From an uncultured Chloroflexia bacterium (lineage in GTDB: Bacteria; Chloroflexota; Limnocylindria; Limnocylindrales; CSP1-4), in assembly GCA_963707215.1 (NCBI GenBank), contig CAVPPB010000003.1:1600001-1664000 (forward strand): DNA of 64,000 bases. The letters run 5' to 3'. Under the pieces are notes generated by a model. It saw only the letters and a list, made by a program, of their open reading frames with translations. It was not told the origin of the DNA and ran no database searches. Position 1 is the first letter of the stretch, and every line of letters starts with the position of its first letter. Below, piece by piece: positions 3,550-52,386 of the stretch. The position numbers were made by a program, and so were the translations under genes.

Positions 3550-4911
3550 ATGGACCCGCACGCCGACACCGACCTCGCCGCCGATCGTGGCGCCGGACCG
3601 ACCGACGCTCCCACGCCGCCGCCTGCCGCGACCGATCGCAGCCGGCCCGGCGCCAGGCCCGTGGTGCGACGCCTGGCCTCCGGCGCCCTGGTGGTCGTCC
3701 TCGTGGCCGGGATCTTCGGCGCCGGGGTCGCGGTCGATCGGACGGGCGTCCTGGGCGGGCCCGCATCCGACGCCGTCCCGGTGGACGCCACCGACTTCGC
3801 CCTCATCCGCGAGGCCTGGGACGATCTCCACGCGAAGTACGTCGGTGCGGCGGACCTGCGATCGCGCTACCTCGCCTACGCGGCGATCGAGGGCCTGACC
3901 GAGGCCGTCGACGACCCCGGCCATACCGGGTTCCTGACGCCCGAGGAACGCGAACAGCGGCGCCAGGCCCTGTCCGGTTCCTTCGTGGGTGTCGGCATCC
4001 AGGTGGACACGCGACCCGACGGCGTCACGGTCGTCGGCGTCTTCCGGGGCAGTCCGGCTGAGGCGGCCGGACTGCGGCGTGGCGATCGGATCACGGCGGT
4101 CGATGGCACGACGATCGAGGCTGATGCGATCGACCGCGTGGTCGAGCTCGTCCGCGGCGAGGCGGGATCGGACGTCACCCTGACCCTGGAGCGTGCCGGG
4201 GCGAGCGAGCCGCTGGTGACCACGGTGGAGCGAGCGGAGATCGACCTGCCCGCCGTCTCGTGGGCGCCCGTTCCCGGGACGTCGATCGCCATGCTCCGGC
4301 TCGAGCAGTTCTCATCGGGCTCGGCCGGACAGCTGAAGGACGCCCTCGGCGAGATCCTGTCGACCGAGCCGGGCGGGATCGTCCTGGACCTTCGGGGCAA
4401 CCCCGGCGGCTACATCAACGAGGCTGTGGCGGTCGCGAGCCAGTTCCTCGACGATGGCGTGGTCCACCTGTCCCGCGATGCGGCCGGCGGCGTGACACCG
4501 ACCGCGGTCGAGCCCGGCGGCGTCGCGGCGGACGTCCCGGTCATCGTCCTCGTCGACGAGGGATCCGCCAGCTCGGCCGAGATCGTCACCGGTGCCCTGC
4601 AGGACGCCGGGCGGGCCACGGTCGTCGGTCGTCGCACCTTCGGGACCGGGACGGTCGTCTCGGAGGTCCCGCTGGCGGACGGCTCGGCGCTCCGCATCGG
4701 GGTCATCGAATGGCTGACCCCGGACGGCCGGTCGATCTGGCGGACGGGTCTTGCGCCCGACCGCTCGGTGGCCCTGCCCGCCGGCGCCGCCCCGCTCGTT
4801 CCCGAAGACCTGGCCGCGATGGGCCCGCACGCGCTCATCCGCAGCGGCGACACCCAGCTCCTGACGGCGCTCGAGCTGCTGGGCGCCGATCTGCCCGAGC
4901 CGGCTTCCTAG
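3550..4911 (+). CDS. ctpA: S41 C-terminal processing peptidase (PDZ), membrane anchored
   Basis: GVGI PDZ motif, LDLRGNPGG, SASSAEIVTGALQD, RTFGTG; N-terminal TM. Confidence 0.9.
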   Translation: MDPHADTDLAADRGAGPTDAPTPPPAATDRSRPGARPVVRRLASGALVVVLVAGIFGAGVAVDRTGVLGGPASDAVPVDATDFALIREAWDDLHAKYVGAADLRSRYLAYAAIEGLTEAVDDPGHTGFLTPEEREQRRQALSGSFVGVGIQVDTRPDGVTVVGVFRGSPAEAAGLRRGDRITAVDGTTIEADAIDRVVELVRGEAGSDVTLTLERAGASEPLVTTVERAEIDLPAVSWAPVPGTSIAMLRLEQFSSGSAGQLKDALGEILSTEPGGIVLDLRGNPGGYINEAVAVASQFLDDGVVHLSRDAAGGVTPTAVEPGGVAADVPVIVLVDEGSASSAEIVTGALQDAGRATVVGRRTFGTGTVVSEVPLADGSALRIGVIEWLTPDGRSIWRTGLAPDRSVALPAGAAPLVPEDLAAMGPHALIRSGDTQLLTALELLGADLPEPAS

Positions 4912-6748: not shown

Positions 6749-7081
6749 TCAGTCCCGGACGACGGCCCAGATGAACGACATGAAGGCGAAGAAGCCCGTG
6801 AAGAGGGCGATCAGGCCGATCGCCCCGTAGGGCGAGTTGGCGCCGGTCCGGGGCACGATCGCGAGGATCGCCCCGAAGGTCACGGCCCAGGCGACGACGA
6901 TCGCGAATGTCGCGTAGCGGGCGTTGATCGAGGTGATCATGCGGACCCAGCGGGGCTGGCGCCCCTCGGTCGAGAGGGCGGCCGCGAGGGCCGGGATGAT
7001 GATGATCGCCCCGAGACCGATCGCCAGGGTGAAGATCACGAAGGTGAGCGGGCTCGCGAAGGGGGCCAGGAGCAGCTGCAC
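6749..7081 (-). CDS. Small hypothetical membrane protein (about 3 TM)
   Basis: Hydrophobic 110-aa ORF; GAGGA RBS before GTG7081. Confidence 0.65.
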   Translation of the reverse strand: MQLLLAPFASPLTFVIFTLAIGLGAIIIIPALAAALSTEGRQPRWVRMITSINARYATFAIVVAWAVTFGAILAIVPRTGANSPYGAIGLIALFTGFFAFMSFIWAVVRD

Positions 7082-7133
7082 GGTCGTCCTCGATGTGCTG
7101 GACCGGAGGCGCGGCGATGGTAGCAGACGGCCG

Positions 7134-8783
7134 CTAGGCCTCGCGGGCCGCCACGACCGAGATGCGGGCGAGGCCGGTGGCACCTGACGGCAGGGGCGGA
7201 CGGACGACGGGGTCCTGGACGTTGCCCGCCAGGTCAGTCGCCCGGGCGACCACGACCCGGCGCCCCGGATCCGGGATCGTGACGGTCGCTCGCCAGCGCC
7301 GCCAGGTCTGCTCGTTCGTGTCGGCGGTCGAGGGCTCGAGCTCCGCTTCGGCCCAGCTGGCCCCCTCGTCGAGGCTGATCTCGACGCGCCCGATGCCGCG
7401 GTCGCCGGACGACGCGACGCCGAAGACCTCGAACGGCTGGCCGGCGGGCACGACGTCGGCATCGCGGGGGTCGTCGATCCTCGACCAGACCCGCACCGCC
7501 GCCGTGTCGTCCCAGCCTCGCTTCACCCAGTAGCCGGGCTCGTCCGTCTCGGACAGCTCGATGCCGACGAGGTGCTTGGGCTGCTTCATGCCATAGCGGC
7601 CGGCGATGAGGACCCGCAGCGGGTAGCCGTGCTCCGGGGTCAGGGCCGTCCCCGGCTCACCCATCTCGTCGACCAGCCAGGTCCACTCGTCGCGGGCCAC
7701 GGCGATGGGCAGCGATTCGGTGAAGCCGTCGGCCGCGCGCCAGAGGACCCAGCGAGCCTCGGGCCGGACCCCGACCTGATCGAGCAGGTCGGCCAGTCGC
7801 AGGCCAGCCCAGCGCTGGTTGCCGATCAGGCCGCCCCAGGTGACGACCTCGTTGCTGATGCACTGCATCGCCCGGTGGCCCTCGACCCGGGGGAAGGCCC
7901 GCAGCTCGTCCAGGCCGACCGACGTCGGTCGCTCGACGAGGCCTCCGACCTCGAGGCGCCAGGACGCCTCGTCGATGGTCGGCGGCACCAGGTCCTTGCC
8001 GACCGTGTAGAACTCCCCGATCGGGGTCGTCCTGGGTGTGGGCCCGTAACCCTCGATCGACGGACGGAGGGTCCGACCTCCTGCCGGCCGGAGGGCCGCC
8101 CCGGAGACGCGGCCGATGACGGCGATCCCGGCGCCGATCACGGAGACCGCTCCCAGCCCAAGGACCCCCCGCCGCAGCACCTCGCGCCGGCCGAGCCCGC
8201 CGCCAGCCAGAGACGCGGGTGCCGGCTCCCCCGACACGCCGTCCATCGCAGGAGCGGTCGTCAGCGGCTCCTCCGCCTGCGTCCGGCGCAGCAGGACGAC
8301 CACGACGCCGTAGGCGATCGCCGCCGCCACGAGGGGTCCATGCAGGGCGAGCGGGTCGCCGCGCCAGCCCGAACCCAGCACGCCGACGCCTGCGAGGGGC
8401 AGGACGAGCAGCTCGGCCGCGACGAGGGCGACGACGGCCAGCATCGCGGCGGCTCCCGGGCCCGGGCGATCGTCAAGGGCCCGGCCGAAGAGCACGGCCA
8501 GGAGGGCCCCTGCCAGCGGGAGCGCCAGGGCGACGGCGGCGAAGACGAGCCCCTTGGCCAGCGGGCCGAGCGCCGCCAGGACGGCATCGAAGACCGGCAC
8601 GGGGACGTAGAGGGTGACGCCGTTGGCGACCGCCTCGACGAAGCCGCCCTGGCCGAACAGGGTCGAGCCGAGCAGCAGCGTCGCCAGCGCGACCGCACCG
8701 GCCAGCGCCCCGTCTCGGGCAAGGGCATGGCGGGTCGCTGGGGGGCTGGGGGTCGCGGGCATGGGAGGGAGGGTCGTCGACAT
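7134..8783 (-). CDS. Molybdopterin-dependent oxidoreductase (sulfite oxidase/MsrP-like) with N-terminal membrane domain
   Basis: MQCISN Mo-ligand Cys, EHGYPLR, YGMKQPK, GYWVKRGW, Ig-like dimerisation C-terminus, internal twin-Arg GRREVL. Confidence 0.88.
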   Translation of the reverse strand: MSTTLPPMPATPSPPATRHALARDGALAGAVALATLLLGSTLFGQGGFVEAVANGVTLYVPVPVFDAVLAALGPLAKGLVFAAVALALPLAGALLAVLFGRALDDRPGPGAAAMLAVVALVAAELLVLPLAGVGVLGSGWRGDPLALHGPLVAAAIAYGVVVVLLRRTQAEEPLTTAPAMDGVSGEPAPASLAGGGLGRREVLRRGVLGLGAVSVIGAGIAVIGRVSGAALRPAGGRTLRPSIEGYGPTPRTTPIGEFYTVGKDLVPPTIDEASWRLEVGGLVERPTSVGLDELRAFPRVEGHRAMQCISNEVVTWGGLIGNQRWAGLRLADLLDQVGVRPEARWVLWRAADGFTESLPIAVARDEWTWLVDEMGEPGTALTPEHGYPLRVLIAGRYGMKQPKHLVGIELSETDEPGYWVKRGWDDTAAVRVWSRIDDPRDADVVPAGQPFEVFGVASSGDRGIGRVEISLDEGASWAEAELEPSTADTNEQTWRRWRATVTIPDPGRRVVVARATDLAGNVQDPVVRPPLPSGATGLARISVVAAREA

Positions 8784-11181: not shown

Positions 11182-12404
11182 GCCGACGCCCGGCCGCCGT
11201 CGCCTGCCTCGCCACCCGCCTCGGCCGCGGGGCCGCCCTCATCGCCCTGGCCGCGGTCCTGGCTGCCTGCGCCGGGGGGCCGATCCTTGCTGTTCCGCCG
11301 GCCCCGCGGCCGTCGATCACCCCCGAGACCCCGCCGGCGATCCCGTTGAGCGACCCGCAGCCCGTGGTGCTGCCGCGCGACGACGGCCCGCACAGCCGGC
11401 TGACGGAGTGGTGGTACTACACCGGCCATCTCCAGGACGAGGCCGGCGCCTGGTACGGCTTCGAGTACGTCATCTTCCGGGCCGAGCGCGGCGACTTCCC
11501 CGTGTCCTGGGCGTCGCATCTGGCCGTCACCGATGTCGAGGGCGACACGTTCCGCTACGCCGAGCGGGCCGAGATCGGGGCCCAGGTGGATCGCTCGCCG
11601 CGGAGCCCGGACGGCAGGCCCACCGGCTTCGATCTCGCCCTGAGCGGGGCCGACCCGACCCGACCCGAGACGTTCGGGCTGCCGGCCTGGACGATGACCG
11701 GGAGCGGCGGGAACGACCGCCTCGCCGCCTCCCTCGGGCCGGACGAGGCCGCCGGGCGGGGCTCACCGGGCGGGATGGGCCTGGACCTCCGGCTGGAGAC
11801 GACCAAGCCGCCGGCCCTCCACGACACCGACGGCTGGATCGACTTCGGCCCGGCGGGGGGCTCGTACTACTACTCGCGCACCTCGATGGCGGCCGAGGGG
11901 ACATTGACGCTCGACGGACGAACGCGGCAGGTGACCGGGGTCGCCTGGTTCGACCACCAGTGGGGCGACTTCATCGCCGTCGGCGGCGGAGGCTGGGACT
12001 GGTTCGCGGCGAACCTCGACGACGGCACCGAGCTGACCGTCTCGCTCGTCAGGGACCGCGATGGCTCCTACCCGCTCAGCTACGGGACGCTCGTGGACGC
12101 TGAGGGCGGGACCCGCCACCTGCCCGCCGATGCCATCTCGGTGCAGCCGCTGGGCAGCTGGACGAGCGAGCGCAGCGGGGCCACCTACCCATCCGGATGG
12201 CACGTCGCGGTCCCCTCCGAGGAGCTGGACCTCGTCCTCGAGCCGGTGGTCCTCGACCAGGAGCTCGACACCCGGGCGACGACCGGTGTCGTCTACTGGG
12301 AGGGCGCCCAGGTCGTGTCCGGGACGCGGGCCGGGGAGCCGATCGCCGGTCGCGCCTACGTCGAGCTGACCGGCTACGCCCCCGCCGAGCCGGCTGCCCG
12401 CTGA
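11178..12404 (+). CDS. AttH/CrtC-like lipocalin-domain lipoprotein
   Basis: EWWYYTG, SYYYS, WFDHQWG, GWDWF, YWEG, AYVELTGY; lipobox LAAC; ATGA overlap with the MMPL stop. Confidence 0.85.
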   Translation: MSRRPAAVACLATRLGRGAALIALAAVLAACAGGPILAVPPAPRPSITPETPPAIPLSDPQPVVLPRDDGPHSRLTEWWYYTGHLQDEAGAWYGFEYVIFRAERGDFPVSWASHLAVTDVEGDTFRYAERAEIGAQVDRSPRSPDGRPTGFDLALSGADPTRPETFGLPAWTMTGSGGNDRLAASLGPDEAAGRGSPGGMGLDLRLETTKPPALHDTDGWIDFGPAGGSYYYSRTSMAAEGTLTLDGRTRQVTGVAWFDHQWGDFIAVGGGGWDWFAANLDDGTELTVSLVRDRDGSYPLSYGTLVDAEGGTRHLPADAISVQPLGSWTSERSGATYPSGWHVAVPSEELDLVLEPVVLDQELDTRATTGVVYWEGAQVVSGTRAGEPIAGRAYVELTGYAPAEPAAR

Positions 12405-12502: not shown

Positions 12503-12955
12503 ATGCGACTCGAGCTGACCCGCCGGGCCGACTACGCCGTCCGGGCGATGCTGGCCCTGTCCGTCCCCGACGGCCCGCGGCCCCAGAGCGTCCGGCGGAT
12601 CGCCGAGCGGATGGGGATCCCGCCTCGCTTCCTGCCGCAGGTCATGCACGACCTGTCAGCGGCCGATCTGGTCGAGGCCTTCGCCGGCCGACATGGTGGC
12701 TACCGGCTCCGCCGGCCGGCCGGGGAGATCTCGCTGCTCGACGTGATCGAGGCCGTCGAGGGCGACACCCGCCGCCAATCGTGCGTGCTGCGTGGCGGCC
12801 CGTGCGGGGTCGAGGGCTTCTGCGCGGTCCACGACGTGTTCGCCGGGGCCCAGGACGACGTCCTCGCCCGACTCGAGCAGGCACGCCTGGCCGACGTCGC
12901 GGACGTCTTCGAGCGCTTCGGGCGGGACGCCATCGACCGAGTGCCCGGCCGCTGA
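12503..12955 (+). CDS. Rrf2 family transcriptional regulator (3 Cys, probably Fe-S)
   Basis: ADYAVRAML, GRHGGYRL, ISLLDVIEAVEG, C-x6-C-x5-C. Confidence 0.9.
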   Translation: MRLELTRRADYAVRAMLALSVPDGPRPQSVRRIAERMGIPPRFLPQVMHDLSAADLVEAFAGRHGGYRLRRPAGEISLLDVIEAVEGDTRRQSCVLRGGPCGVEGFCAVHDVFAGAQDDVLARLEQARLADVADVFERFGRDAIDRVPGR

Positions 12956-13094
12956 CGCGATCGGAGCGCCGGATGGCGGCCGACCGTCGTCCGGATGGCC
13001 CCACCAGCCGTGACGTCCGACCCAGCGGGTCCCGGCCGCTTCTCGGGTAGCATCGTGCCGCGCCGATCCGGCTACGGTCGGCCCGGAGGTCCCC

Positions 13095-13778
13095 ATGCAG
13101 CACGCAGCACCCGACGCCGCCGTCGAGCGCCGCTGGGCCGTCGTCGGCCTGGTGGGCGTCGGCTTGGTATTCGTGGCGCTCGTCGCGCTCATCGCCTGGG
13201 TGGCCCTGGAGCGGGCCTCCGGCTCGGCGGACGTCGCCGGCGGCGCCGACGGTGACGAGATCGCCGGTGGCCCTTCGCCCTTCGCCTACCCCACGATCGA
13301 GCCGGCCCCGCCCCTCGACCTCGTCGACCACACGGGGCAGCCATTCGACCTGAGCGGCCTGCAGGGCCACCCGGTCCTCGTCTTCTTCGGCTACACGCAC
13401 TGCCCCGACGTCTGCCCGACCACGATCGGCACGGTCAACCGCGTCCTCGGCGACGTCGGCGATGGCCCGCGGGTCCTGTTCGTCTCGATCGACCCCGAGC
13501 GCGACACGCCCGAGGCGATGGCGGAGTACGTCCGGTTCCTGCCCGAGGGCTACATCGGCCTGAGCGGCGACGACATCCAGGTCCGGGCCGCGGCCGACGG
13601 CTACCGGGTCAGCTACGCCAAGGTGGAGACGGGTTCGGCATCCGGCTACGCCATGGCCCACACGGCCGAGCTCTACCTCATCGACCCGGAGGGCCGGCTG
13701 CGCTACCACTACCCGTTCGGGACCGACGAGGAGGTCGTCGCCGCGGACGTGGCCGCCCTCCTCGCGGAGCGCTCATGA
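13095..13778 (+). CDS. SCO1/SenC copper chaperone
   Basis: FFGYTHCPDVCP, SIDPERDTP, conserved His in MAHTA. Confidence 0.93.
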   Translation: MQHAAPDAAVERRWAVVGLVGVGLVFVALVALIAWVALERASGSADVAGGADGDEIAGGPSPFAYPTIEPAPPLDLVDHTGQPFDLSGLQGHPVLVFFGYTHCPDVCPTTIGTVNRVLGDVGDGPRVLFVSIDPERDTPEAMAEYVRFLPEGYIGLSGDDIQVRAAADGYRVSYAKVETGSASGYAMAHTAELYLIDPEGRLRYHYPFGTDEEVVAADVAALLAERS

Positions 13779-15323: not shown

Positions 15324-15755
15324 CTACGCGGGGGACCGGCGGAGGGCCAGGACCGCGACGACCAGCCCCGCGACCACGGTCGTGCCGTAGGCCACGCACC
15401 AGGCGCAGATCGCCTCGATGACGAAGAGCTCCAGGTAGGTCAGGTAGGCCACGCCGAGCGAGCCGAGGATGCCGAGGCCGTAGGCGACCAGGAGCGCTCG
15501 GCGATCCCTCGTGGCCAGCCAGCGCAGCCCCGCCCCGAGGACGACGACGGAGTAGGCCACCCCGTACAGCGCGACCGGCAGACCGAACAACTCGCTGTAC
15601 TCGCTGCCCTGGACGAGCTCGCAGCCACCATCCGGGCCGCAGGCCGGCAGGCCGCCTGCCAGCCGGACGGCAAGGAGATAGGTGGCGATGACCAGGCCGA
15701 CGAGTGGCAGGACGACGAGCAGCAGCCCCAGGGGATCGCGTCGGACGGCGCTCAA
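15324..15755 (-). CDS. Vitamin K epoxide reductase (VKOR) family
   Basis: Loop Cys pair CGPDGGC, SEYSELFGLPVA, CAWC in the last TM. Confidence 0.92.
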   Translation of the reverse strand: MSAVRRDPLGLLLVVLPLVGLVIATYLLAVRLAGGLPACGPDGGCELVQGSEYSELFGLPVALYGVAYSVVVLGAGLRWLATRDRRALLVAYGLGILGSLGVAYLTYLELFVIEAICAWCVAYGTTVVAGLVVAVLALRRSPA

Positions 15756-15775
15756 TGGAACGGGACGTGGGCCGG

Positions 15776-16582
15776 TTATGGGGCCGACCAGGCGCTCGCC
15801 GCGGCGTCACGGATGAGGGTCGCGAGCTGCTCGTACGGCACGGCGCCCTCGTAGCGCTCGCCGTTCACGGCGATCGTCGGGGTCAGCCGGATGCCGTCGG
15901 CCGCGCCGGCGTCGGTGTCGGCGACGACCTGGTCCTGGACGTCCCCGCGATCCATGCAGGCATTCCAGGCGTCGACGTCGAGGCCCGTCCGCTCGGCGAT
16001 GGCCTCGAGGCGGTCCCTGGCGAACGCACCCTCGTTCTCGCCGCTCTGGTTGGCGAAGAGCCAGTCGTGGAACTGCCAGAACGATCCCTGCTCGCCGGCA
16101 CAGTGCGCTCCGGCCGACGCCTCGACCGATTCGTCATAGGACGAGGCCGAGCGCCGGCCCTGGAAGGCGGCGTCATGGTGGAAGATGCGCAGGGTGCCGT
16201 CGACCACGAACGTCTCGCGGATGAGCGTCTCGGTGTCCCGGGCGAAGACCCCGCAGGCCGGGCACTGGAAGTCGGACCAGACGTCGAGGGTGACCGGGGC
16301 GTCGGCCTGGCCCATGGTGGCGCCGTCGACGACGGCACCGGCCGGGACCGGGCGCTCCGGGGCCAGCAGATCCCCGCCGGCGTTGCCGCCGCCGCCCTGG
16401 GTGAGGACGGCGAAGGCGATGACGACTGCCCCGACGAGCAGGGCGCCGCCGGTGATGAGGACGGTCGGTGACGCCCAGGCCGGCCGGGTCGACGTCTGCT
16501 CCTGGCGGACCCGGCGCTCGCGTCGACCGGCTTGTCGGCGCTCGCGTCGCGTCTGGTAGCTGGGCGGCTGCTTCTGGCTCAG
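15776..16582 (-). CDS. DsbA/BdbD-like thioredoxin-fold protein with N-terminal TM (probable CTG start)
   Basis: SDFQCPAC, TPT cis-Pro loop. The frame is open upstream of ATG16315 through a TM helix to CTG16582, which has GGAGG 8 nt upstream. Confidence 0.85.
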   Translation of the reverse strand: MSQKQPPSYQTRRERRQAGRRERRVRQEQTSTRPAWASPTVLITGGALLVGAVVIAFAVLTQGGGGNAGGDLLAPERPVPAGAVVDGATMGQADAPVTLDVWSDFQCPACGVFARDTETLIRETFVVDGTLRIFHHDAAFQGRRSASSYDESVEASAGAHCAGEQGSFWQFHDWLFANQSGENEGAFARDRLEAIAERTGLDVDAWNACMDRGDVQDQVVADTDAGAADGIRLTPTIAVNGERYEGAVPYEQLATLIRDAAASAWSAP

Positions 16583-45078: not shown

Positions 45079-46405
45079 TCAGGGCGCCAGGTCAGGCGGG
45101 GGCACCAGCACCCCGGACTCCACGGGCTGGAAGTTCGAAGGATCGATGTCGGCGAGATCGACCCCTCCGAGCCACCCGGCGCAGTCGGTTCCCGCCGCCT
45201 TGGGATCGGAGATCCAGATCCCGATCCGCTGGGGGGAGCCGTCCTTGACGATGACCGCCGACCAGTCGCCGGCACGCTCGCCTGAGACCGTGGTCTGCTC
45301 GGTCGTGCCGCTGAGGGCCCAGGTGTCGCCGTCCCGGGCGGCACACTCCAGCCGGACGGTGTGGGTGCCTGCCTCGAAGGTCGTGACGGCCGTGCCGGAC
45401 ACGCTCGCGCCATCGGCGACGGCGTCGACCTCCGTCGTGGCGGCGGCTCCATCGAGCTGGTACTCCACGGTGCCGCCGAGAGCGCTGCCGAACGTCGTCG
45501 ACTCGGCGATCGACCGCATCTCCTCGACGAGGTCCGCTGGAGTGTCGAGGCGGTACATCGCATCGATCACCAAGAAGGCGCCGTCGACGTCCACGATCCA
45601 GAGCGCATCGATCTGGCCTGGGCCCTGGTGGTAGCGCGCCAGGGCGATCCTCCCCGGTCGCGAAGCTGACGAACTCGCCCTCTTCGCACCCATCGGGCGC
45701 GGCGTCAGCCGGCACGTGGAGGGTGATCGACTGGCCCGCGTTGCCGTCGACCGTCACATCGACCGGCTCCGTGGCATCCCGTGATGCCTGCTCCGCGAGA
45801 GCGGCCGCGAACTCTTCGATCGTCGTGGCGGGAGTGGCCGGCCTGGTCGATGTCACCTGGCAGGGATCCCCTGTGCACGTAGAAGCTCGTACCGGCGGGA
45901 TATGCCCAGAGAAAGCCTCGTGGCCTCAGGCAGATTGTCCAGGCCTCGTCGTCCTTCACACGGGCTGAAGTCGCGGAAACGGTCCATCCGGGATCCGATG
46001 GTGACCGTGACCTGCACCGATCTTCGTCGGTGGAGACGACGACCGGGCCTTCGGGAAGGCCGGCTGCGAAGCCGACGGCGCGGCTGATGGCGCTCGCGTA
46101 GGGGCCGGCGCGGACGAGGGCGAGGGCGATGAAGCGCCACCGATTCCGTCGGGCGCTGGGGCACCCAGGAACTGGACGCCGACGACGAGGGCAACGGCCA
46201 CGCCGGCGGCGCCGAGGCCGATGGGGACGAACTTGTTCATGGTTCTCCGTAGTCTCTCTGGGAGCGTGCGCCAACCGCCCTGCTGCCTGGTCGCCCGCGT
46301 GCGTTCGAACGTCGCACGCAGGACGCGATCGGACAGCCGACCCGGGGCTTCCGCCTCGAGCCAATCGCTGATCCGTTCCTCGAGCTGGCGGTCGGTAGGC
46401 ATCAC
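45079..46405 (-). pseudogene. Putative membrane anti-sigma-like protein with extracellular domains, several frameshifts
   Basis: Overlaps the ECF stop; short cytoplasmic N-terminus, TM, Pro/Ser linker; continuation split over three or more frames. Confidence 0.6.
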
Positions 46406-46953
46406 GCAGTCCTGTCCTGGGCGACCGCCGGCTGCCGCGCGTCGGCCTCGAGCGCCGCACGCATCGCCTCGGTCGCGTAGTGAAGTCGTGATCTGGCGGT
46501 CCCCTCGGGGATGCCGAGCATCCGCGCGATCTCGGCCGACGAGAAGCCGCTGTAGTAGTGGAGGACGACCACCGCCCGTTGCTCGGGCTTCAGTCGACTG
46601 AATCCCCGCTCCAGCTGTTCGCGGTCAGCGACGGCACCGGTGTCATCGCCGACCGAGGTGTCGAGCGGCAGTGGCCGCACCTGGTTCGACCAGCGCCGCA
46701 GCTGTCGGCCCTGGTCTGCACAGGCGTTGACCACCAGGCGATAGAGCCAGGCGTCGAACCGATCCGGATCGCGCAGCGAGGGAAGCTGCCGCCACGCGCG
46801 AACCAGCGCTTCCTGCACCGCGTCCTCCGCCAGGTCGGACGACCGGAGGATCAGGCGAGCGACCGCGTACAGGCGATCGCCGGCGGAGGTCGCGAGGACT
46901 TCGAATGCCTCATGGTCTCCCTGGCGGGCCGCCTCTACGAGATCTCGCCTCAT
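46402..46953 (-). CDS. ECF RNA polymerase sigma factor
   Basis: AEDAVQEAL, FDAWLYR, EIARMLGIPEGTARSRLH. Confidence 0.93.
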   Translation of the reverse strand: MRRDLVEAARQGDHEAFEVLATSAGDRLYAVARLILRSSDLAEDAVQEALVRAWRQLPSLRDPDRFDAWLYRLVVNACADQGRQLRRWSNQVRPLPLDTSVGDDTGAVADREQLERGFSRLKPEQRAVVVLHYYSGFSSAEIARMLGIPEGTARSRLHYATEAMRAALEADARQPAVAQDRTA

Positions 46954-47211
46954 CCGTTCTCCATCACCAGCACGGTCCATCGTCGTCCCGTGTGCCAGTT
47001 ATGACGGGTGTGGCAAGTCAAGTCGTTCAATAACAGGCGGCACCAGCCGGGAGCGGGTCGCAGAATGCCATGGAGGCGATGGGCTCGGCCGCCGGATCCG
47101 TCGGCCTGCCGGACCGGTTCGATCGGACTCGTAGGGCCATACCGCCACGCCGGACACGCACGCGGGGCCGATGGCCGATCGCGCGCGCCGGGGTATCATC
47201 GGCCCGCACGC

Positions 47212-47287
47212 GCGCCTGTAGCTCAGCGGATAGAGCGTCGGCCTCCGGAGCCGAAGGTCGCAGGTTCGAATCCTGTCGGGCGCGCCA
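47212..47287 (+). tRNA. tRNA-Arg(CCG)
   Basis: Acceptor GCGCCTG/CGGGCGC, anticodon arm TCGGC-CTCCGGA-GCCGA, TTCGAAT, CCA; TATCAT -10 at 47194. Confidence 0.97.
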
Positions 47288-47690
47288 TTGCAACCTTTTC
47301 GGGCAGCGCCAACGCCAATCCGTGCGCGTAGGCCGACTGCGTCAGCCGGACAGCCACGATCTCGGGCCCGGCGCTCGTGATCCGGTCGTAGATGGCGTGC
47401 ATCAGGTCTGCCTTCTCCTTCGGTACATCTGCCTGCTGGATCGACGCGGCGAGGGCATGCAGCCACTCGATCGCTCGCTGCGCGGGGACGCCGGTATCCG
47501 CGCCGTCCGCGATCGCGCCCCGCGCCTGGCGGAGCGCCTTGAGCCGGGCGAGGTACGTGTCGTCGCCCAGGGTGCCCGCGGCGTGCTCGAGGGCGAGCTC
47601 GCGGATCCGCCGGTCGCACATGACGAGGGCGACGCCGGCGGGATGCAGGCCGTCCTCCAGGAGCTCGAGGGTCCGCCGGAGGTTGCGCTG
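47223..47690 (-). pseudogene. Internally deleted large serine recombinase remnant reading into the tRNA
   Basis: QRNLRRTLELLEDGLHPAGVALVMCD (resolvase-domain-like RN...GVAL) joined to a helical C-terminal part ending LPEKVAMARPTGFEP across the att core. Family call is by pattern recognition. Confidence 0.6.
47272..47293 (+). repeat. 22-bp att core, copy 1
   Basis: CCTGTCGGGCGCGCCATTGCAA, identical to 51525-51546. Confidence 0.92.
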
Positions 47691-47959
47691 CCCGTGCCCT
47701 CGTGGCGATGGCCGCTCGTCGTGTCCAGGAGGGTCGCCTGCAGGTTCTCGATGTCGGTGCCTGTCGCTCGCGGGCCGCGCTCGCGGGACCTGCGGCCGAC
47801 AGCGGCCACGCCCGCGCTCCGCTCAGCGTCGAGCGCGAGGCAAGAGTCCCGACGGAGCGCCCTCAAGGCAAACTCGATTGCGCTCCCGGGTTGGTGCGGC
47901 CGAAACGCGGCGGGGCGGGGCACACAGATGGCGTGCCCCGCCCCGCGATCGTGGTGCTG

Positions 47960-48580
47960 TCAGCCGGCCTGCTTGGCGGCCTCCTTGATGGACTTCGCGG
48001 AGGCGTCGGAGACGCCGGCGCTGCGGACCTTGGTGGCCGCCGGCATGGCCTTCTTGACCGCGTCGACATCGGACGCTTCGACGAGCGCGAGGATGCCGGA
48101 CTGGTTGGGCCCAAGGGCTCCGGCCAGGGCGCCGCCCACTTCGGACTTGTGGAGCTCGTTGCGGAGCTTGCCGAGCACGCCACCGACCGCACCCCAGGCG
48201 ACGGTGCTGGCGATGATGCTGGGCGGGAAGATGATGCCGAGCACGAGCCCGCCAACGGCGCCCCACTTGACGCCCGTCTTGGTGGCGTGGTCGGTCATCT
48301 TCTGGATGTGGACCTTGCTGTCCGCGTCGGTCTTGATGACAAGGACGCCGTCAACCGTGGCCTGGCCGGCCGTCTCCGCGTCCTGCAGGGCCTGGTACGC
48401 CGCCATGGCTGCCGTATCGTCGGCAAACGCCGCAACCACCACGGCGTAGTCGTAGTCGGTCACAACGGCACCGACCGCCTGAGCACCGGAGTCATCGCCG
48501 ATGGCGCCCACCACAGTGGCGCCGGTGTCGTCGGCCTCTGCGGCCACCACTGCGTCCTGAGCCCCCTGGTCGTCTGTCAT
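47960..48580 (-). CDS. DUF1269-like glycine-zipper membrane protein
   Basis: GVKWGAVGGLVLGIIFPP...GAVGGVLG, LGPNQSGILAL. Confidence 0.75.
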   Translation of the reverse strand: MTDDQGAQDAVVAAEADDTGATVVGAIGDDSGAQAVGAVVTDYDYAVVVAAFADDTAAMAAYQALQDAETAGQATVDGVLVIKTDADSKVHIQKMTDHATKTGVKWGAVGGLVLGIIFPPSIIASTVAWGAVGGVLGKLRNELHKSEVGGALAGALGPNQSGILALVEASDVDAVKKAMPAATKVRSAGVSDASAKSIKEAAKQAG

Positions 48581-48810
48581 AGGTGGTACCCCAATCTGCG
48601 TCCATTCCCGCGAAGACCGGGTGCGGACGCCCGACCCGGCCGAAGGACGGTACCCGATATCCCGCTGGGACGCGACCAATGGCACTGTTGCGACGATGAC
48701 CCTCGCCCGAGCGCAGCTCCGCGGTCCGCGCGAGCCCGATCAGCTGCGGGGTCCCGAGAGTGGCCCGGCGGCGGAACCCTTCCGCCGGTGAACCGAGAGC
48801 GGCAGCGCGC

Positions 48811-48895
48811 TCAGAGGTCCTCGACGTTCCCCAGGCCGATCGAGCGCATCTGGGAGAAGACCGCGGCCACGGCCATGTGGCGATCCTCGAACTGG
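48811..48895 (-). pseudogene. Orphan 3' gene fragment
   Basis: QFEDRHMAVAAVFSQMRSIGLGNVEDL* with genome-like codon usage and no 5' part. Confidence 0.3.
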
Positions 48896-48933
48896 CGTCA
48901 CAGTCCCACGGGCCCTCGTGCGAGCATCGCGGC

Positions 48934-49713
48934 GTGATCCACGACCCTCTCCAACGGGCAGCCCAAGGCCCGCTGACCATCCGGCTGATCCTTCACGAAG
49001 CCCTGGCCATGTTCCGCCTCGGCTACCTGCGGGTGGCCCTGGTGGCCCTGCTCCTGTTCGTGCCGCCCGCGGTCCTGGCCGTGCTGCTCGAGGGGATCAC
49101 GGAGGAGCAGCTGGACCTGCCATTCGGCGGCGGGGTGTTGCTCGCGATGGCGATCGGGGGCCTGTTCCGCCTGTTCGGCCCGGTCGTCTTCGCCGGCTAC
49201 CTCGACGAGGCTGTGGGCAGCGAGTACTTCAAGGGTCATCGCCAACGGCTGCCGGAAGTGCTGCGGTCGCTGCCCTGGGTCTCGCTCCTCGTGGCCGACG
49301 TGATCGTGGTCGTAGGGGCGTCCATCGGACTCGCGCTGATGGTGATCCCCGGGATCGCCTTCTACGCGGCCTTCGGGCTGATCGGTCCGGTCATGGTCCA
49401 GGAGCGTCGCGGGATCCTTCCGTCCTTCGGGCGCACGCTGCAGATCAGCCGGACCGCCGTGATCCCGGTCGTCCTCCTGGTCATCGTGCCGCTGGCGGCC
49501 GAGCAGGTGATCCACGAGGCCGCCTACCGCGCGGTGCACGAGGAGGCGGTCCTGGTCCGGATCCTCGCGGAATGGCTGGTCGCGGCCATCGTCGGTGGTG
49601 CCGTTGGCCTGCTGGAGGTTGCGCTCGCCACGGAGCTCATGGCGCGCAACCCGATGCCGGCGGTCCAGCCCGACTCGGCAGTCGCCGGCGCCGAGCGGGA
49701 GCGATCCGCCTAG
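48934..49713 (+). CDS. Hypothetical integral membrane protein
   Basis: About 6 hydrophobic segments; start uncertain. Confidence 0.7.
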   Translation: MIHDPLQRAAQGPLTIRLILHEALAMFRLGYLRVALVALLLFVPPAVLAVLLEGITEEQLDLPFGGGVLLAMAIGGLFRLFGPVVFAGYLDEAVGSEYFKGHRQRLPEVLRSLPWVSLLVADVIVVVGASIGLALMVIPGIAFYAAFGLIGPVMVQERRGILPSFGRTLQISRTAVIPVVLLVIVPLAAEQVIHEAAYRAVHEEAVLVRILAEWLVAAIVGGAVGLLEVALATELMARNPMPAVQPDSAVAGAERERSA

Positions 49714-49743
49714 CTCGCGAGGCCGGCGGATACCCGCCGCGGG

Positions 49744-51105
49744 TCACCGGGCGTCGGCGGCCACCCGTCCGTCCGCGATCGCTGTCTTGAGCGCGCCATA
49801 GTCGAGATCGTTCTGGTTCGCATACGCCTCGGCGAAGTCCGCGACCGCGCCATCGAACGTGTCGCTGTTGCCGAGGTAGCCGGCGATCAGGGCCGGCTCA
49901 CCGGAACGTGCATGAGCCCGGGCGAGGGTCCAGCCGCAGGCCTTGGCGTAGCGGACAAGTCCAGGGGGATCGAGCCGGGCAACGTCGACGCCCACCTTCC
50001 AGTCGCGCATCTGGCGGACGTAGAACGCCGGCTGTCCGGATGCTCCCAGCCAGCCGAGGAAGATGTCGCTGGCCGCCTGCATCACACGCTGGCCCTGCAC
50101 CACCCGCTCCCCGGGCCAGCGGAACTCGCTCCTATCGAGAAACTGCTCGAGGACGGATGCCTGCGCTTCCTTCACCTGCAGGACGAGGAGGTCATGGTCC
50201 GTACGACCCCGCATCAGCACGATGAACGCGCGAAGCCCGACGCTCCCGACGCCGACCACCTTGTGGGCGATGTCGAGGACCTGGTAGCGGTCGAGCAGCC
50301 GCCGGCGCTCGAGCGGGAGCGTCCTGCGGTAGAGGCGCGTCGCCTTCTCGACCGTGTCCTTGAGATCCTCCTGGTCCACGCCCGGCAGCTCGCCCAGCCG
50401 GTAGAGCAGCGGTGGCTGATTGCGGAGCCGCAGGGTGCCCTGCACGCGTTCCGTCAGCTTGCCGATGGGGCGCAGGGGGTCCTCGGTGGTCACGTGACGG
50501 ACCCCTTCGGCGAAGCCCTTGCGTTGGGCCTTTGGAAGAGCAGCCTGCATCGCCGAGCTGGTGAGGCGCGCGTACCAGGTCGTGAGGTACGGATCAGCTG
50601 CGAACCGGCTCATCGCCGACCGGTAGGTGGTGACCAGCGCCAGCACGCTCCTCCGGTCGTCCCCGGATGTGAAGCCATTGCTCCGGCCTGCGATGACGAA
50701 GCTCGCCGCGAGCCGCTTGACGTCCCACTCGAAGGGCCCTGGGAGCGTCTCGTCGAAATCGTTGACGTCGAAGACGAGGTTCCGCTCCGGCGTCGCGTAT
50801 CCGCCGAAGTTGACGAGGTGCGCGTCGCCGCAGAGCTGGGCGCGGATGCCCGTTGCCGGTAGCGTCGCGAGGTCCTCCGCCATGATCGCCGCTGCGCCGC
50901 GGTAGAAGGCGAACGCCGACTCGGACATGCGGCTGTACCGAATGGGCACGAGCGCGGTGACCCTCGTGGCTGCCTGCGCCTCGAGGATCGCGACGGGATT
51001 CCTCCGGCTGTCCGGCGGCGACCAGGCAGCGTGCGCCGACCTGGGGACCCGCTGACGCCGCTCACGACCTTGGTCGAGCTCGCCCTGGGTGGTGTTGCCT
51101 GCCAT
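49744..51105 (-). CDS. DUF2252 family (kinase-like) protein
   Basis: FAFYRGAA, CGDAHLVNFG, DVNDFDE, KVVGVGSVG, LQVKEA, FYVRQMRDWK, LARAHARSG. Confidence 0.9.
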   Translation of the reverse strand: MAGNTTQGELDQGRERRQRVPRSAHAAWSPPDSRRNPVAILEAQAATRVTALVPIRYSRMSESAFAFYRGAAAIMAEDLATLPATGIRAQLCGDAHLVNFGGYATPERNLVFDVNDFDETLPGPFEWDVKRLAASFVIAGRSNGFTSGDDRRSVLALVTTYRSAMSRFAADPYLTTWYARLTSSAMQAALPKAQRKGFAEGVRHVTTEDPLRPIGKLTERVQGTLRLRNQPPLLYRLGELPGVDQEDLKDTVEKATRLYRRTLPLERRRLLDRYQVLDIAHKVVGVGSVGLRAFIVLMRGRTDHDLLVLQVKEAQASVLEQFLDRSEFRWPGERVVQGQRVMQAASDIFLGWLGASGQPAFYVRQMRDWKVGVDVARLDPPGLVRYAKACGWTLARAHARSGEPALIAGYLGNSDTFDGAVADFAEAYANQNDLDYGALKTAIADGRVAADAR

Positions 51106-51194
51106 GCTCCCCATCTCCCGTTGCGGCCCGTCGCCCGTGGCGCCGTCCCTGGCGGCGCCGAGTCGACCGCGCCATTGTGGGCGCCGCTCAGCCG

Positions 51195-51446
51195 TCAGGA
51201 CAGCCCGAGTGTCCGCTCGGGCTCCGGCAGTCGCGGCGCAAGGATCCACACCAGCTGCGCCATGGTCGCAGCCCCGACCTTCGTCCGCGCATTCGCGAGG
51301 TGGTGCTTGACGGTCGAGTGGGACAGCCCGAGGCGATGAGCAGCGGCCTTCTCTGAGCCCGTGGCGAGCACCGCGGCGACCACCCCGACCTCACGGTCTG
51401 TGGCTCGCCCTGTAGTGCTCCGAGCGGCCGGAGTACGCGCACTCAC
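51195..51446 (-). CDS. Small stand-alone LuxR-type HTH protein
   Basis: TDRE...SEKAAAHRLGLSHSTVKHHLANARTK; GTG51446 overlaps the TGA of the upstream tail frame. Confidence 0.75.
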   Translation of the reverse strand: MSARTPAARSTTGRATDREVGVVAAVLATGSEKAAAHRLGLSHSTVKHHLANARTKVGAATMAQLVWILAPRLPEPERTLGLS

Positions 51447-51524
51447 GCCAGCCGCCGCGCGGCCGCGAGCCACTCATCCCGCCCCTCGATCGGGATCTCG
51501 TAGGTAGCTAACGCGCGCCCAACA

Positions 51525-51546
51525 CCTGTCGGGCGCGCCATTGCAA
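51525..51546 (+). repeat. 22-bp att core, copy 2, within an imperfect palindrome
   Basis: Identical to 47272-47293; GCGCGCCC-AACACCTGTC-GGGCGCGC dyad at 51513-51538. Confidence 0.92.
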
Positions 51547-51601
51547 AACGTCGTGGGCCAATGATTGGGTCCCTCGATGCCGGGGAATTCGATGGGCGCC
51601 A

Positions 51602-52000
51602 TCAGCTGTCCGCCGCGGTGGCTCCATCGAACCTTCCGGTGCCGCCGACGATCTCGAAGTCGTACGTGATCTCCAGCAGCGTGGGATCTGGTCCGACCGC
51701 GGCAACGTCGCTGGCTTCGTAGGTGACGAAGACCTCGTCACCGTTCGCGGCCATGAAGGTCATCTCGATCCCCGTGATGGCGGGGCCAGGCGGGGTACAG
51801 TTGTAGTAGTCGAGCTCGAACTTGCCCAGATGCGTAGCCTGTCCGGTGGCCGTGAAGACGGAGCGCAGCGTCGCCCCATCGGGCAGCACTGGGCACAGCG
51901 AGTCGGGCTGAACCATCCCGAACCCCGCTGCGGTGCCGTTGAACGGACGCTGTGGATCGCTCCTGGCCGCCACGGGTGCCGCGGTGGCCAGCACCAGCAT
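51602..52000 (-). pseudogene. Truncated secreted protein
   Basis: Signal-peptide remnant LVLATAAPVAA; ends abruptly after IVGGTGRFDGAT. Confidence 0.5.
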
Positions 52001-52009
52001 CAGTACGAC

Positions 52010-52386
52010 CAGACTGGCAGGACCTGCGGGACGCGCTCGACCGGACCTACGACGAGATCCGGAGGCTGCGCGCCGGCCAGCCGACGATCCTCAGGGTCGT
52101 CGGCAGCTTCGCGCCGTGGTATGGCCAGCTGCGACAGGCGGGGATCGAATCGGCGTGCATGGCCAACGAGGCGGTCCGCGAGCAGGTCGAGCGGGATGCC
52201 GCCGAGGCGGCCGGGGCCGTGTTCGTCTCCGCGCTCGATCTGTTCAATGGACCCGCGCACGACGTGGACCCGGTCGAGCTGGGCTGGATCGGCATGGACA
52301 GTGTCCACGCCAACGACGCCGGCCGCGCCATCCTGGTCGAAGCGCTCGCTGCCACCGGATGGGAGGCGAGCGAGCCGCCAAGCTGA
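52010..52386 (+). pseudogene. C-terminal fragment of an SGNH/GDSL hydrolase
   Basis: DSVHAN (DxxH) block present; N-terminal GDS block absent. Confidence 0.55.

Follow-up and report, generated by a model that had tools for sequence, protein, structure and literature searches.

A fossil integrative element at a tRNA-Arg gene in a Limnocylindria genome, probably left by a large serine recombinase whose family spans its own attachment site

We have analysed a stretch of 64,000 nucleotides from an uncultured Chloroflexia bacterium (contig CAVPPB010000003.1, positions 1,600,001 to 1,664,000), which we refer to as the window and number from its first letter, and we conclude, with a probability of roughly 0.8, that positions 47272-51546 are the fossil of a small integrative element that was inserted at the 3' end of a tRNA-Arg(CCG) gene by a large serine recombinase (LSR), i.e. 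by a member of an enzyme family whose genes span their own attP. In the arrangement that we propose, the crossover of attP would lie inside the LSR frame, 26 codons before its stop. With the P' and P arms joined, in a free circle or in the interior of an array, the frame would encode a full-length LSR that ends in VGRALATYEIPIEGRDEWLAAARRLA, and its stop would overlap the start of the next gene (NTGA), which in the window is a gene of the GerE-type helix-turn-helix (HTH) family. Integration would part the two arms: the LSR would then end in about 15 residues read from the antisense strand of the tRNA gene, FEPATFGSGGRRSI[RH], while the next gene would remain behind at the opposite end of the element, its translation no longer coupled to that of the LSR. 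This architecture is conserved across relatives, with purifying selection on the tail, and it also occurs in tandem arrays.

In the window, an exact 22-nt direct repeat, CCTGTCGGGCGCGCCATTGCAA, brackets 4.25 kb (4253 bp) at the tRNA-Arg(CCG) gene (47212..47287, plus strand, detected with ARAGORN), the integration target, whose 3' end would now come from the P' arm of the element. Copy 1 of the repeat (47272..47293), in attL, spans the final 16 bases of the tRNA and six more; it opens with CC, which reads GG on the minus strand and would be the crossover dinucleotide, and its other 20 bases would be what the element supplies in place of the tRNA 3' end and the 6 nt beyond it. Copy 2 (51525..51546), in attR, corresponds to the original 3' end of the tRNA, now displaced, together with 6 nt. 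At up to three mismatches, these two places are the only matches to the repeat in the 64-kb window; a chance origin has been rejected, as two or more matches occurred in 0 of 100 shuffles.

The minus-strand open reading frame (ORF) 47223-47621 crosses copy 1 and ends in ...LPEKVAMARPTGFEPATFGSGGRRSIR and a stop, with the last 15 codons and the stop (47223-47270) read from the antisense strand of the tRNA. This ORF belongs to the dead remnant of an LSR gene (47223..47692, minus), which we have delimited by tblastn of a 518-aa homolog, P0105, against the window: 47604-47690 corresponds to residues 101-129 of P0105 with 100% identity, and is joined in frame to 47268-47616, the counterpart of residues ~376-494. 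Residues 1-100 and ~130-375 are missing, and the catalytic domain is reduced to residues 101-129. Pfam and PHROGs assign no family to the remnant, and its identity therefore comes from its homologs, e.g. P0004, which carries a Resolvase domain; a search of its own genome with the remnant returned itself as the one match, and no other copy.

At copy 2, the frame MARPTG-VGRALATYEIPIEGRDEWLAAARRLA (51443..51541, minus) is open to its stop, 51541-51443 reading MARPTGVGRALATYEIPIEGRDEWLAAARRLA; its last 26 codons are the conserved C-terminus which members of the LSR family have in the joined state of the P' and P arms. The TGA of this tail overlaps the GTG of an 83-codon GerE/LuxR-type HTH gene (51195..51446, minus, start GTG at 51446-51444; Pfam GerE 29.2 bits, cut-off 23.5), forming GTGA at 51446-51443. 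A start of the HTH gene further upstream, at 51473, was considered and rejected, since the ratio of non-synonymous to synonymous changes (pN/pS) in the HTH frame is ~2 upstream of the NTGA. An inverted repeat, GCGCGCCC-n10-GGGCGCGC (51513..51538), is centred on the CC at 51525-51526, and together with the P' arm at attL it would give a near-perfect palindromic attP. Most of this layout had been read in an earlier note on the same DNA, and it stands: the recombinase frame that crosses copy 1 into antisense tRNA agrees with the translation of 47223-47621, the continuation of the frame at copy 2 with its GTGA overlap is correct to the base, the palindromic repeat is where it should be, and the descent of the left ORF from a recombinase follows from the tblastn match to P0105 and from the homologs with a Resolvase domain. 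That only a remnant of the recombinase is left had escaped the note.

The position of the crossover can be narrowed by comparison with L033, a related element that sits at a non-tRNA site and whose two junctions share only GACAGG. Its right junction reads ...GCGCGCCCGACAGG followed by AGTCAGACATGC, and its left junction ...GCACGTCTGACAGG followed by TGTTGGACGCGCG; the target reconstructed from them, GCACGTCTGACA-GG-AGTCAGACATGC, is a palindrome about GG, and the window yields a reconstructed attP of the same symmetry, GCGCGCCCGACA-GG-TGTTGGGCGCGC; the 22-bp repeat of the window starts exactly at this dinucleotide. Serine recombinases have a 2-bp crossover, and the crossover would most likely be the GG of the Gly codon in ...ARPTG, at the centre of the palindromic attP.

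Intact copies of the element are carried by relatives labelled Limnocylindria (Chloroflexota), where both of the proposed C-termini are found. The integrated form is exemplified by L032, in which an LSR ORF of 500 aa ends in ...AVMARPTGFEPATFGSGGRRSIH within tRNA-Arg(CCG); no second att copy occurs there within 20 kb at up to three mismatches, and the far end of the element probably lies beyond the stretch examined. When P0105 was searched against 301 genomes of the class, 80 gave matches (a tally that includes the unpublished genomes G180 and G187, which bear on no other result), among them 55 of the 91 genomes of the window's family, and nearly all of the full-length matches listed stop at P0105 residue 489-497, at or just before ...ARPTG. 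The tail-joined form has emerged from a search with a 40-residue stretch around the tail (543 proteins at E up to 10, among 974 candidates): 14 of the 16 proteins inspected run from the LSR directly into ...ARPTGVGRALATYEIPIEGRDEW[LV]AAARR[LP]A, among them the complete P0105 (518 aa, with its Resolvase domain), P0069 (441 aa) and shorter fragments such as P0080, while in the other two, P0014 and P0101, ARPTG is preceded by sequence that is not from an LSR.

Metagenome contigs hold the same two forms: 80 loci have yielded 58 cores, in which the sequence after the ARPT/G boundary is antisense tRNA in 35, the conserved tail in 15 and something else in eight (two diverged tails with an IP[IV][DE]G-related motif, three variant tRNA readings, one contig end and two chance matches), and at least 10 intact tail-bearing ORFs of 512-521 aa are present. 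The chromosomal copies that join LSR and tail are accounted for by tandem arrays. In the array L100, the order is tRNA-Arg::dLSR1..HTH1::LSR2..HTH2::dLSR3, with LSR2 of full length and tail-bearing and with attP-like junctions, and the loci L163 and L164 follow the same pattern. These intact relatives bear out the proposal, first made from the window, that the att crossover falls within a serine recombinase gene, and they show the tail at the far end to be the family's conserved C-terminus.

The class of the enzyme is indicated both by profiles and by structure models. P0105 and the LSRs of L032 and L033 match Pfam PF00239 (Resolvase) at 40.7 to 44.2 bits (cut-off 23.3), the recombinase domain PF07508 reaches 20.5 bits, just below its cut-off of 21.1, and a RESTxGQ stretch is conserved in the LSR homologs; across 42 homologs, a zinc-ribbon signature is found, with C301, H320 and C324 invariant and C299 present in at least 90%. 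The AlphaFold2 model of P0105, built on an alignment of 42 sequences, has a mean predicted local distance difference test score (pLDDT) of 90.7 and shows three long helices (370-389, 395-414 and 422-438), after which comes a beta hairpin; these helices would form a coiled coil inserted in the zinc ribbon. Foldseek matches this model to serine integrase-att complexes over ~510 columns (E ~2e-15 for 9y66 and 9dxh, ~3e-14 for phiC31 9tep and ~4e-12 for Bxb1 9iu2), while a sequence search of the PDB gave no match to any solved structure, and the phage and plasmid collections hold no close relative (identity of 25% at most). Judged by the model, the enzyme has the fold of an LSR. The insertions at tRNA-Arg and at one non-tRNA site, as well as the tandem arrays, would fit an enzyme that integrates attP into attB.

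Long identical cores that rebuild the 3' end of a tRNA are typical of tyrosine integrases, and the Islander paper gives tRNA targeting as known only for that class (PMC4383910), so that the 22-bp repeat might be taken as the signature of a tyrosine-integrase island, with the LSR fragment as unrelated debris. We give this explanation almost no credence: the segment contains no tyrosine integrase, an LSR adjoins the same tRNA core in 35 of the 58 metagenome cores and in many genomes, and the insertion at L033 shares six bases only, at a palindromic target, as for an LSR.

The family to which we assign the recombinase is broad. An exhaustive, profile-free search has returned 1920 homologs at E up to 0.001, of which 189 are at 1e-30 or below, and 34 approximately full-length representatives have been aligned at 29-54% identity. 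In 15 of these 34, the C-terminus is an antisense-tRNA peptide, e.g. GLEPPT..., GIEPAT or GFEPPT..., which points to targets among other tRNAs. A tail of the type IPI.GR.EWL...R[ST]A has been retained by about a dozen, and the rest end otherwise. The genes of L033 are co-oriented and encode a GerE HTH protein, an FAD/BBE oxidoreductase, an HNH protein, a D5_N/DUF5906 primase-helicase and the LSR, and L032 carries Prim-Pol/PriCT/D5_N genes upstream of its LSR; from their gene content, these elements appear to be small, replicative islands of a plasmid-like or satellite-like kind. At 6377-8747 of L032, Prim-Pol/PriCT/D5_N and D5_N/DUF5906 lie in two overlapping frames, as if a single primase-helicase gene had been interrupted by a frameshift, be it genuine or due to misassembly.

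The tail itself recurs widely: at the DNA level, 50 of the 101 family genomes searched (a tally that includes the unpublished G344) carry the tail/HTH module, frequently more than once. In L033, where this stretch is 75% identical in DNA to the window, the tail reads LTGVGRAITTYTLPIEGRDEWLAAARRLA and its TGA overlaps the GTG of a GerE gene. The loci that came from this search contain 25 tail hits, and in 20 of them the frame is open over 33 codons and ends in its stop. Over codons 15-32, the tail frame has a pN/pS of 0.27 and each of the two other frames one of 2.0, as calculated from 15 sequences, after the removal of L083 (a duplicate of L033), L075_664, L090, L082 and L071 (first part unalignable), L085 (internal stop), L081, L087 and L067 (no in-register stop) and L075_1824 (cut by the end of the locus). 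These codons sit 45-96 bp from the crossover, outside a site of the usual LSR size, and the pattern of changes indicates that the tail is under purifying selection as protein.

The overlap between the stop of the tail and the start of the next gene is conserved as well. It is present as NTGA in 20 of 20 distinct junctions from the genomes of relatives (GTGA in 16, ATGA in three, TTGA in one), where the changes from GTG to ATG are synonymous for the last Ala of the tail, and as ATGA in 10 of 13 metagenome junctions; it was on the conservation of the tail frame and its 4-nt overlap in other elements that the earlier note had staked its reading. The downstream ORF of the 20 junctions is an intact GerE-like gene in 13 and frameshifted or degenerate in seven, and in the metagenomes the gene downstream is GerE, another HTH, ParB_N or a ParB_N-DNA methylase, or is of no known type. 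In one sub-branch, a ParB_N gene is coupled to the tail by ATGA (L113, 4021-4848), and in L110 (9107-10441) the gene coupled by ATGA encodes ParB_N fused to an N6/N4 DNA methylase domain.

Conserved overlaps of this kind would also be expected if the tail were an independent leader ORF of 32 codons, which starts from the NTG of the tRNA CCA end and loads ribosomes onto the next gene, its fusion to the LSR being incidental and of no consequence for the enzyme. Codon 1 is indeed ATG, GTG or TTG in 12 of 15 junctions, the NTGA is strongly conserved, and the downstream gene needs some route of translation in the integrated state. Nevertheless, codon 1 is CTG or GTC in the other three of the 15 junctions, the non-tRNA insertion of L033 among them; the loading of ribosomes needs no selection on amino acids, yet pN/pS is 0.27; the tail is modelled as a confident strand beside LSR strand 484-489, plus a helix; and the tail motifs persist in homologs with other tRNA targets. 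A mere leader is, on this evidence, unlikely, and we retain the reading of the tail as the C-terminus of the LSR.

The structure model is in keeping with such a C-terminus. In P0105, strand 484-489 comes after the last hairpin (453-468); the residues of the crossover then form a turn of lower confidence, which leads to strand 496-501 and helix 507-517, and the block pLDDT values along this stretch are 85, 68, 92 and 81. In the AlphaFold2 model of the integrated isoform from L032, no secondary structure is assigned to residues 480-500, whose pLDDT stays below 50. A different role for the tail, which the earlier note had raised in the form of a possible Ala-rich degron for Clp, is that of a C-terminal degradation tag: the free integrase would be short-lived and the integrated form stable, following the logic of BPs immunity, where in phages with tyrosine integrases attP lies in the repressor gene and an ssrA-like tag is removed by integration (PMC8092301). 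The tail does contain much Ala, and its last two residues are -LA or -SA. However, the terminal Ala is there because the GC[A/G]TGA overlap dictates it, the tail is modelled as a structured strand and helix (pLDDT 81-92), and its most conserved part, IPIEGRDEW, is internal rather than terminal. The proposal of a degron has thus gained no positive support, and we consider it quite unlikely.

Several observations weigh against the explanation that we prefer, i.e. a fossil element of an LSR family that spans its own attP. The window's own LSR is, by its sequence, dead and the locus inert; the recombinase there being a dead fragment, no switching can take place at this locus. P' and B' are identical over 20 bp in the window, which makes attL look like attB and attR like attP, and such identity is unusual for LSRs. 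Every copy with LSR and tail joined whose context we have examined lies in an array or on a short contig, and none of the 80 metagenome loci has the identical ends (at least 15 nt) of a free circle, although many of these loci are parts of contigs and make a weak test for circles; arrays are seen, and the free circular form is what we infer. In L070 (near 863), the LSR frame stops (...PSRGRA) four codons before the core, leaving the tail unfused. The stop/start overlap is lacking in three of the 13 metagenome junctions, and, as the list of downstream genes makes plain, the coupling is conserved but its partner is not constant. Lastly, the structure models rest on alignments of only 42-43 sequences.

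The exchange of one tail for the other would be expected to change the behaviour of the enzyme: by analogy with the IntP and IntX forms of the Mx8 integrase, the integrated isoform would most likely have a lowered or altered activity. We can only tentatively suggest more than this, namely that the tail swap is a built-in switch of directionality or commitment for a large clade of tRNA-targeting LSRs, which operates without a separate directionality factor: the full-length enzyme, its strand-helix tail placed on the zinc-ribbon domain, would integrate, the tRNA-tailed isoform would be silent or competent for excision, and the next gene would be translated in step with the LSR only when the element is free or arrayed. 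Because P' equals B' for 20 bp, attL would still resemble attB, so that stacking of elements would be possible, and this resemblance would also explain the arrays. Of the integration-state switch that had been proposed from the window, the architecture survives in the relatives, but the window cannot exemplify it, its LSR being a dead fragment; the suggestion that the HTH protein is a recombination directionality factor has gained no support, and the presence of ParB-methylase and other genes in its place speaks against such a role and against a specific partnership with the tail.

The attP-spanning design has counterparts among enzymes of other families. According to published accounts, serine integrases were not known to target tRNA genes, and the integrases of Mx8 and SSV extend across attP (PMC4383910); on integration, the int gene of Mx8 receives a different 3' end, and its activity is modified (PMC6070905); in tyrosine-integrase phages with integration-dependent immunity, the gene that is split is that of the repressor (PMC8092301); and in a Streptomyces phage, a proposed syntenic system lies beside a serine integrase, rather than having attP within the integrase (PMC12243558). 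A full-text search of the literature, with subscription journals and supplements outside its reach, has returned no serine integrase gene that spans attP and no LSR family that targets tRNA genes; in the literature searched, an integrase that spans attP is described for tyrosine integrases (Mx8, SSV) only.

When compared with the serine integrases of phiC31, Bxb1 and Listeria LI/A118, the present family has the same Resolvase domain, Cys/His zinc ribbon and long helices, and att sites that appear to be short and palindromic; it differs from them in that it targets tRNA genes, has its attP inside the integrase ORF, carries an additional C-terminal strand-helix tail that is lost on integration and, in the window, has P' and B' identical over 20 bp. 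The Mx8 integrase likewise has attP within its coding sequence and acquires a new 3' end (PMC6070905, PMC4383910), but it is a tyrosine integrase, unrelated in family and mechanism, so that the present serine recombinases are alike in design without being members. The activity of the Mx8 enzyme is altered, whereas the isoforms of the present family are known from sequences and models, and the translational coupling across attP that we describe here is not part of the available account of Mx8. In the fuselloviruses of the SSV1 type, the integrase gene also lies across attP and is partitioned by integration (PMC4383910), but the enzyme is an archaeal tyrosine integrase whose gene is split in two, whereas the present family swaps only its last 26 codons. 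The BPs mycobacteriophages share with it an attP inside a gene and C-termini that differ with the state of integration (PMC8092301); there, however, it is the repressor that is split, with the removal of an ssrA-like tag, and the integrase is of the tyrosine class, whereas here the integrase is split, the HTH gene stays whole and the tail is modelled as folded.

The filling between the repeats of the window consists of a gene for a DUF1269-type membrane protein (47960..48685, minus; Pfam PF06897, 28.9 bits, cut-off 26.9), an ORF for a multi-pass membrane protein (48760..49713, plus; no confident family, sub-threshold matches, the true start probably downstream of 48760) and a DUF2252 gene (49744..51249, minus; Pfam PF10009, E 6.9e-137, the real start probably near 51114). 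None of these three is a mobility gene, and the filling may be cargo or a later rearrangement. Contigs from public runs that match the DUF2252 gene at ~99% stop at 51211, and one of them continues for ~2.2 kb in unlike sequence; a breakpoint between the 3' end of the HTH gene and the DUF2252 region, near 51211, is suggested. A scan of 47100-52100 has returned no promoters and no terminators. Just left of the tRNA-Arg lies a gene for an extracytoplasmic function (ECF) sigma factor (46402-46980, minus), and the ORF that overlaps it downstream (region 45956-46980) may encode an anti-sigma factor.

The 465 bp to the right of attR (51548-52012, including the minus ORF 51602-52000) are a 92% repeat of G000:C1:718005-718467 in the same genome, and the right flank is mosaic. 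In none of the 26 genomes searched does this flank keep its synteny with the tRNA, and no empty site has been obtained. The contigs of four public runs (from four studies) contain, over 46900-51900, no joint that skips the 4253 bp and no circle junction; coming from mixed communities, they are silent on the absence of an excised form.

Comparable scars are found elsewhere. L190 (G001:C37, of the same genus) has the same tRNA-Arg and left flank and 2.9 kb to an attR scar, in which the tail is cut after IEGRE; its filling has no LSR and resembles, by eye only, an ATP-binding cassette (ABC) transporter. A second scar locus in the window's own genome, L099 (contig C3:1264000-1283999, outside the window), has a distant LSR C-terminal remnant, core, tail and GerE HTH gene at 12601-13289, three more HTH paralogs at 4352-4543, 7029-7220 and 11191-11391, and a tRNA-Pro(CGG) at 15715-15791. 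At L098 (G346:C4:3026-12255), four cores lie ~1-4 kb apart (~3335, 7389, 11272 and 12240), accompanied by tails and HTH genes and by hardly any LSR sequence; the locus is an array of very small units, which are probably non-autonomous.

For the annotation of the window, it follows that ORF 47223-47621 is a pseudogene fragment and that the 22-bp repeats mark an old insertion. The LSR family contradicts the older statement that only tyrosine integrases target tRNA genes (PMC4383910). It also appears to be a main source of the small islands and scar arrays of Limnocylindria genomes. Serine integrases are major tools of genome engineering, and their one-way behaviour is normally credited to separate directionality factors. 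If our proposal is true, a state of integration that rewrites a folded part of the enzyme would amount to a different control of its direction or activity, and the same state would make or break the translational coupling of the recombinase to the next gene.

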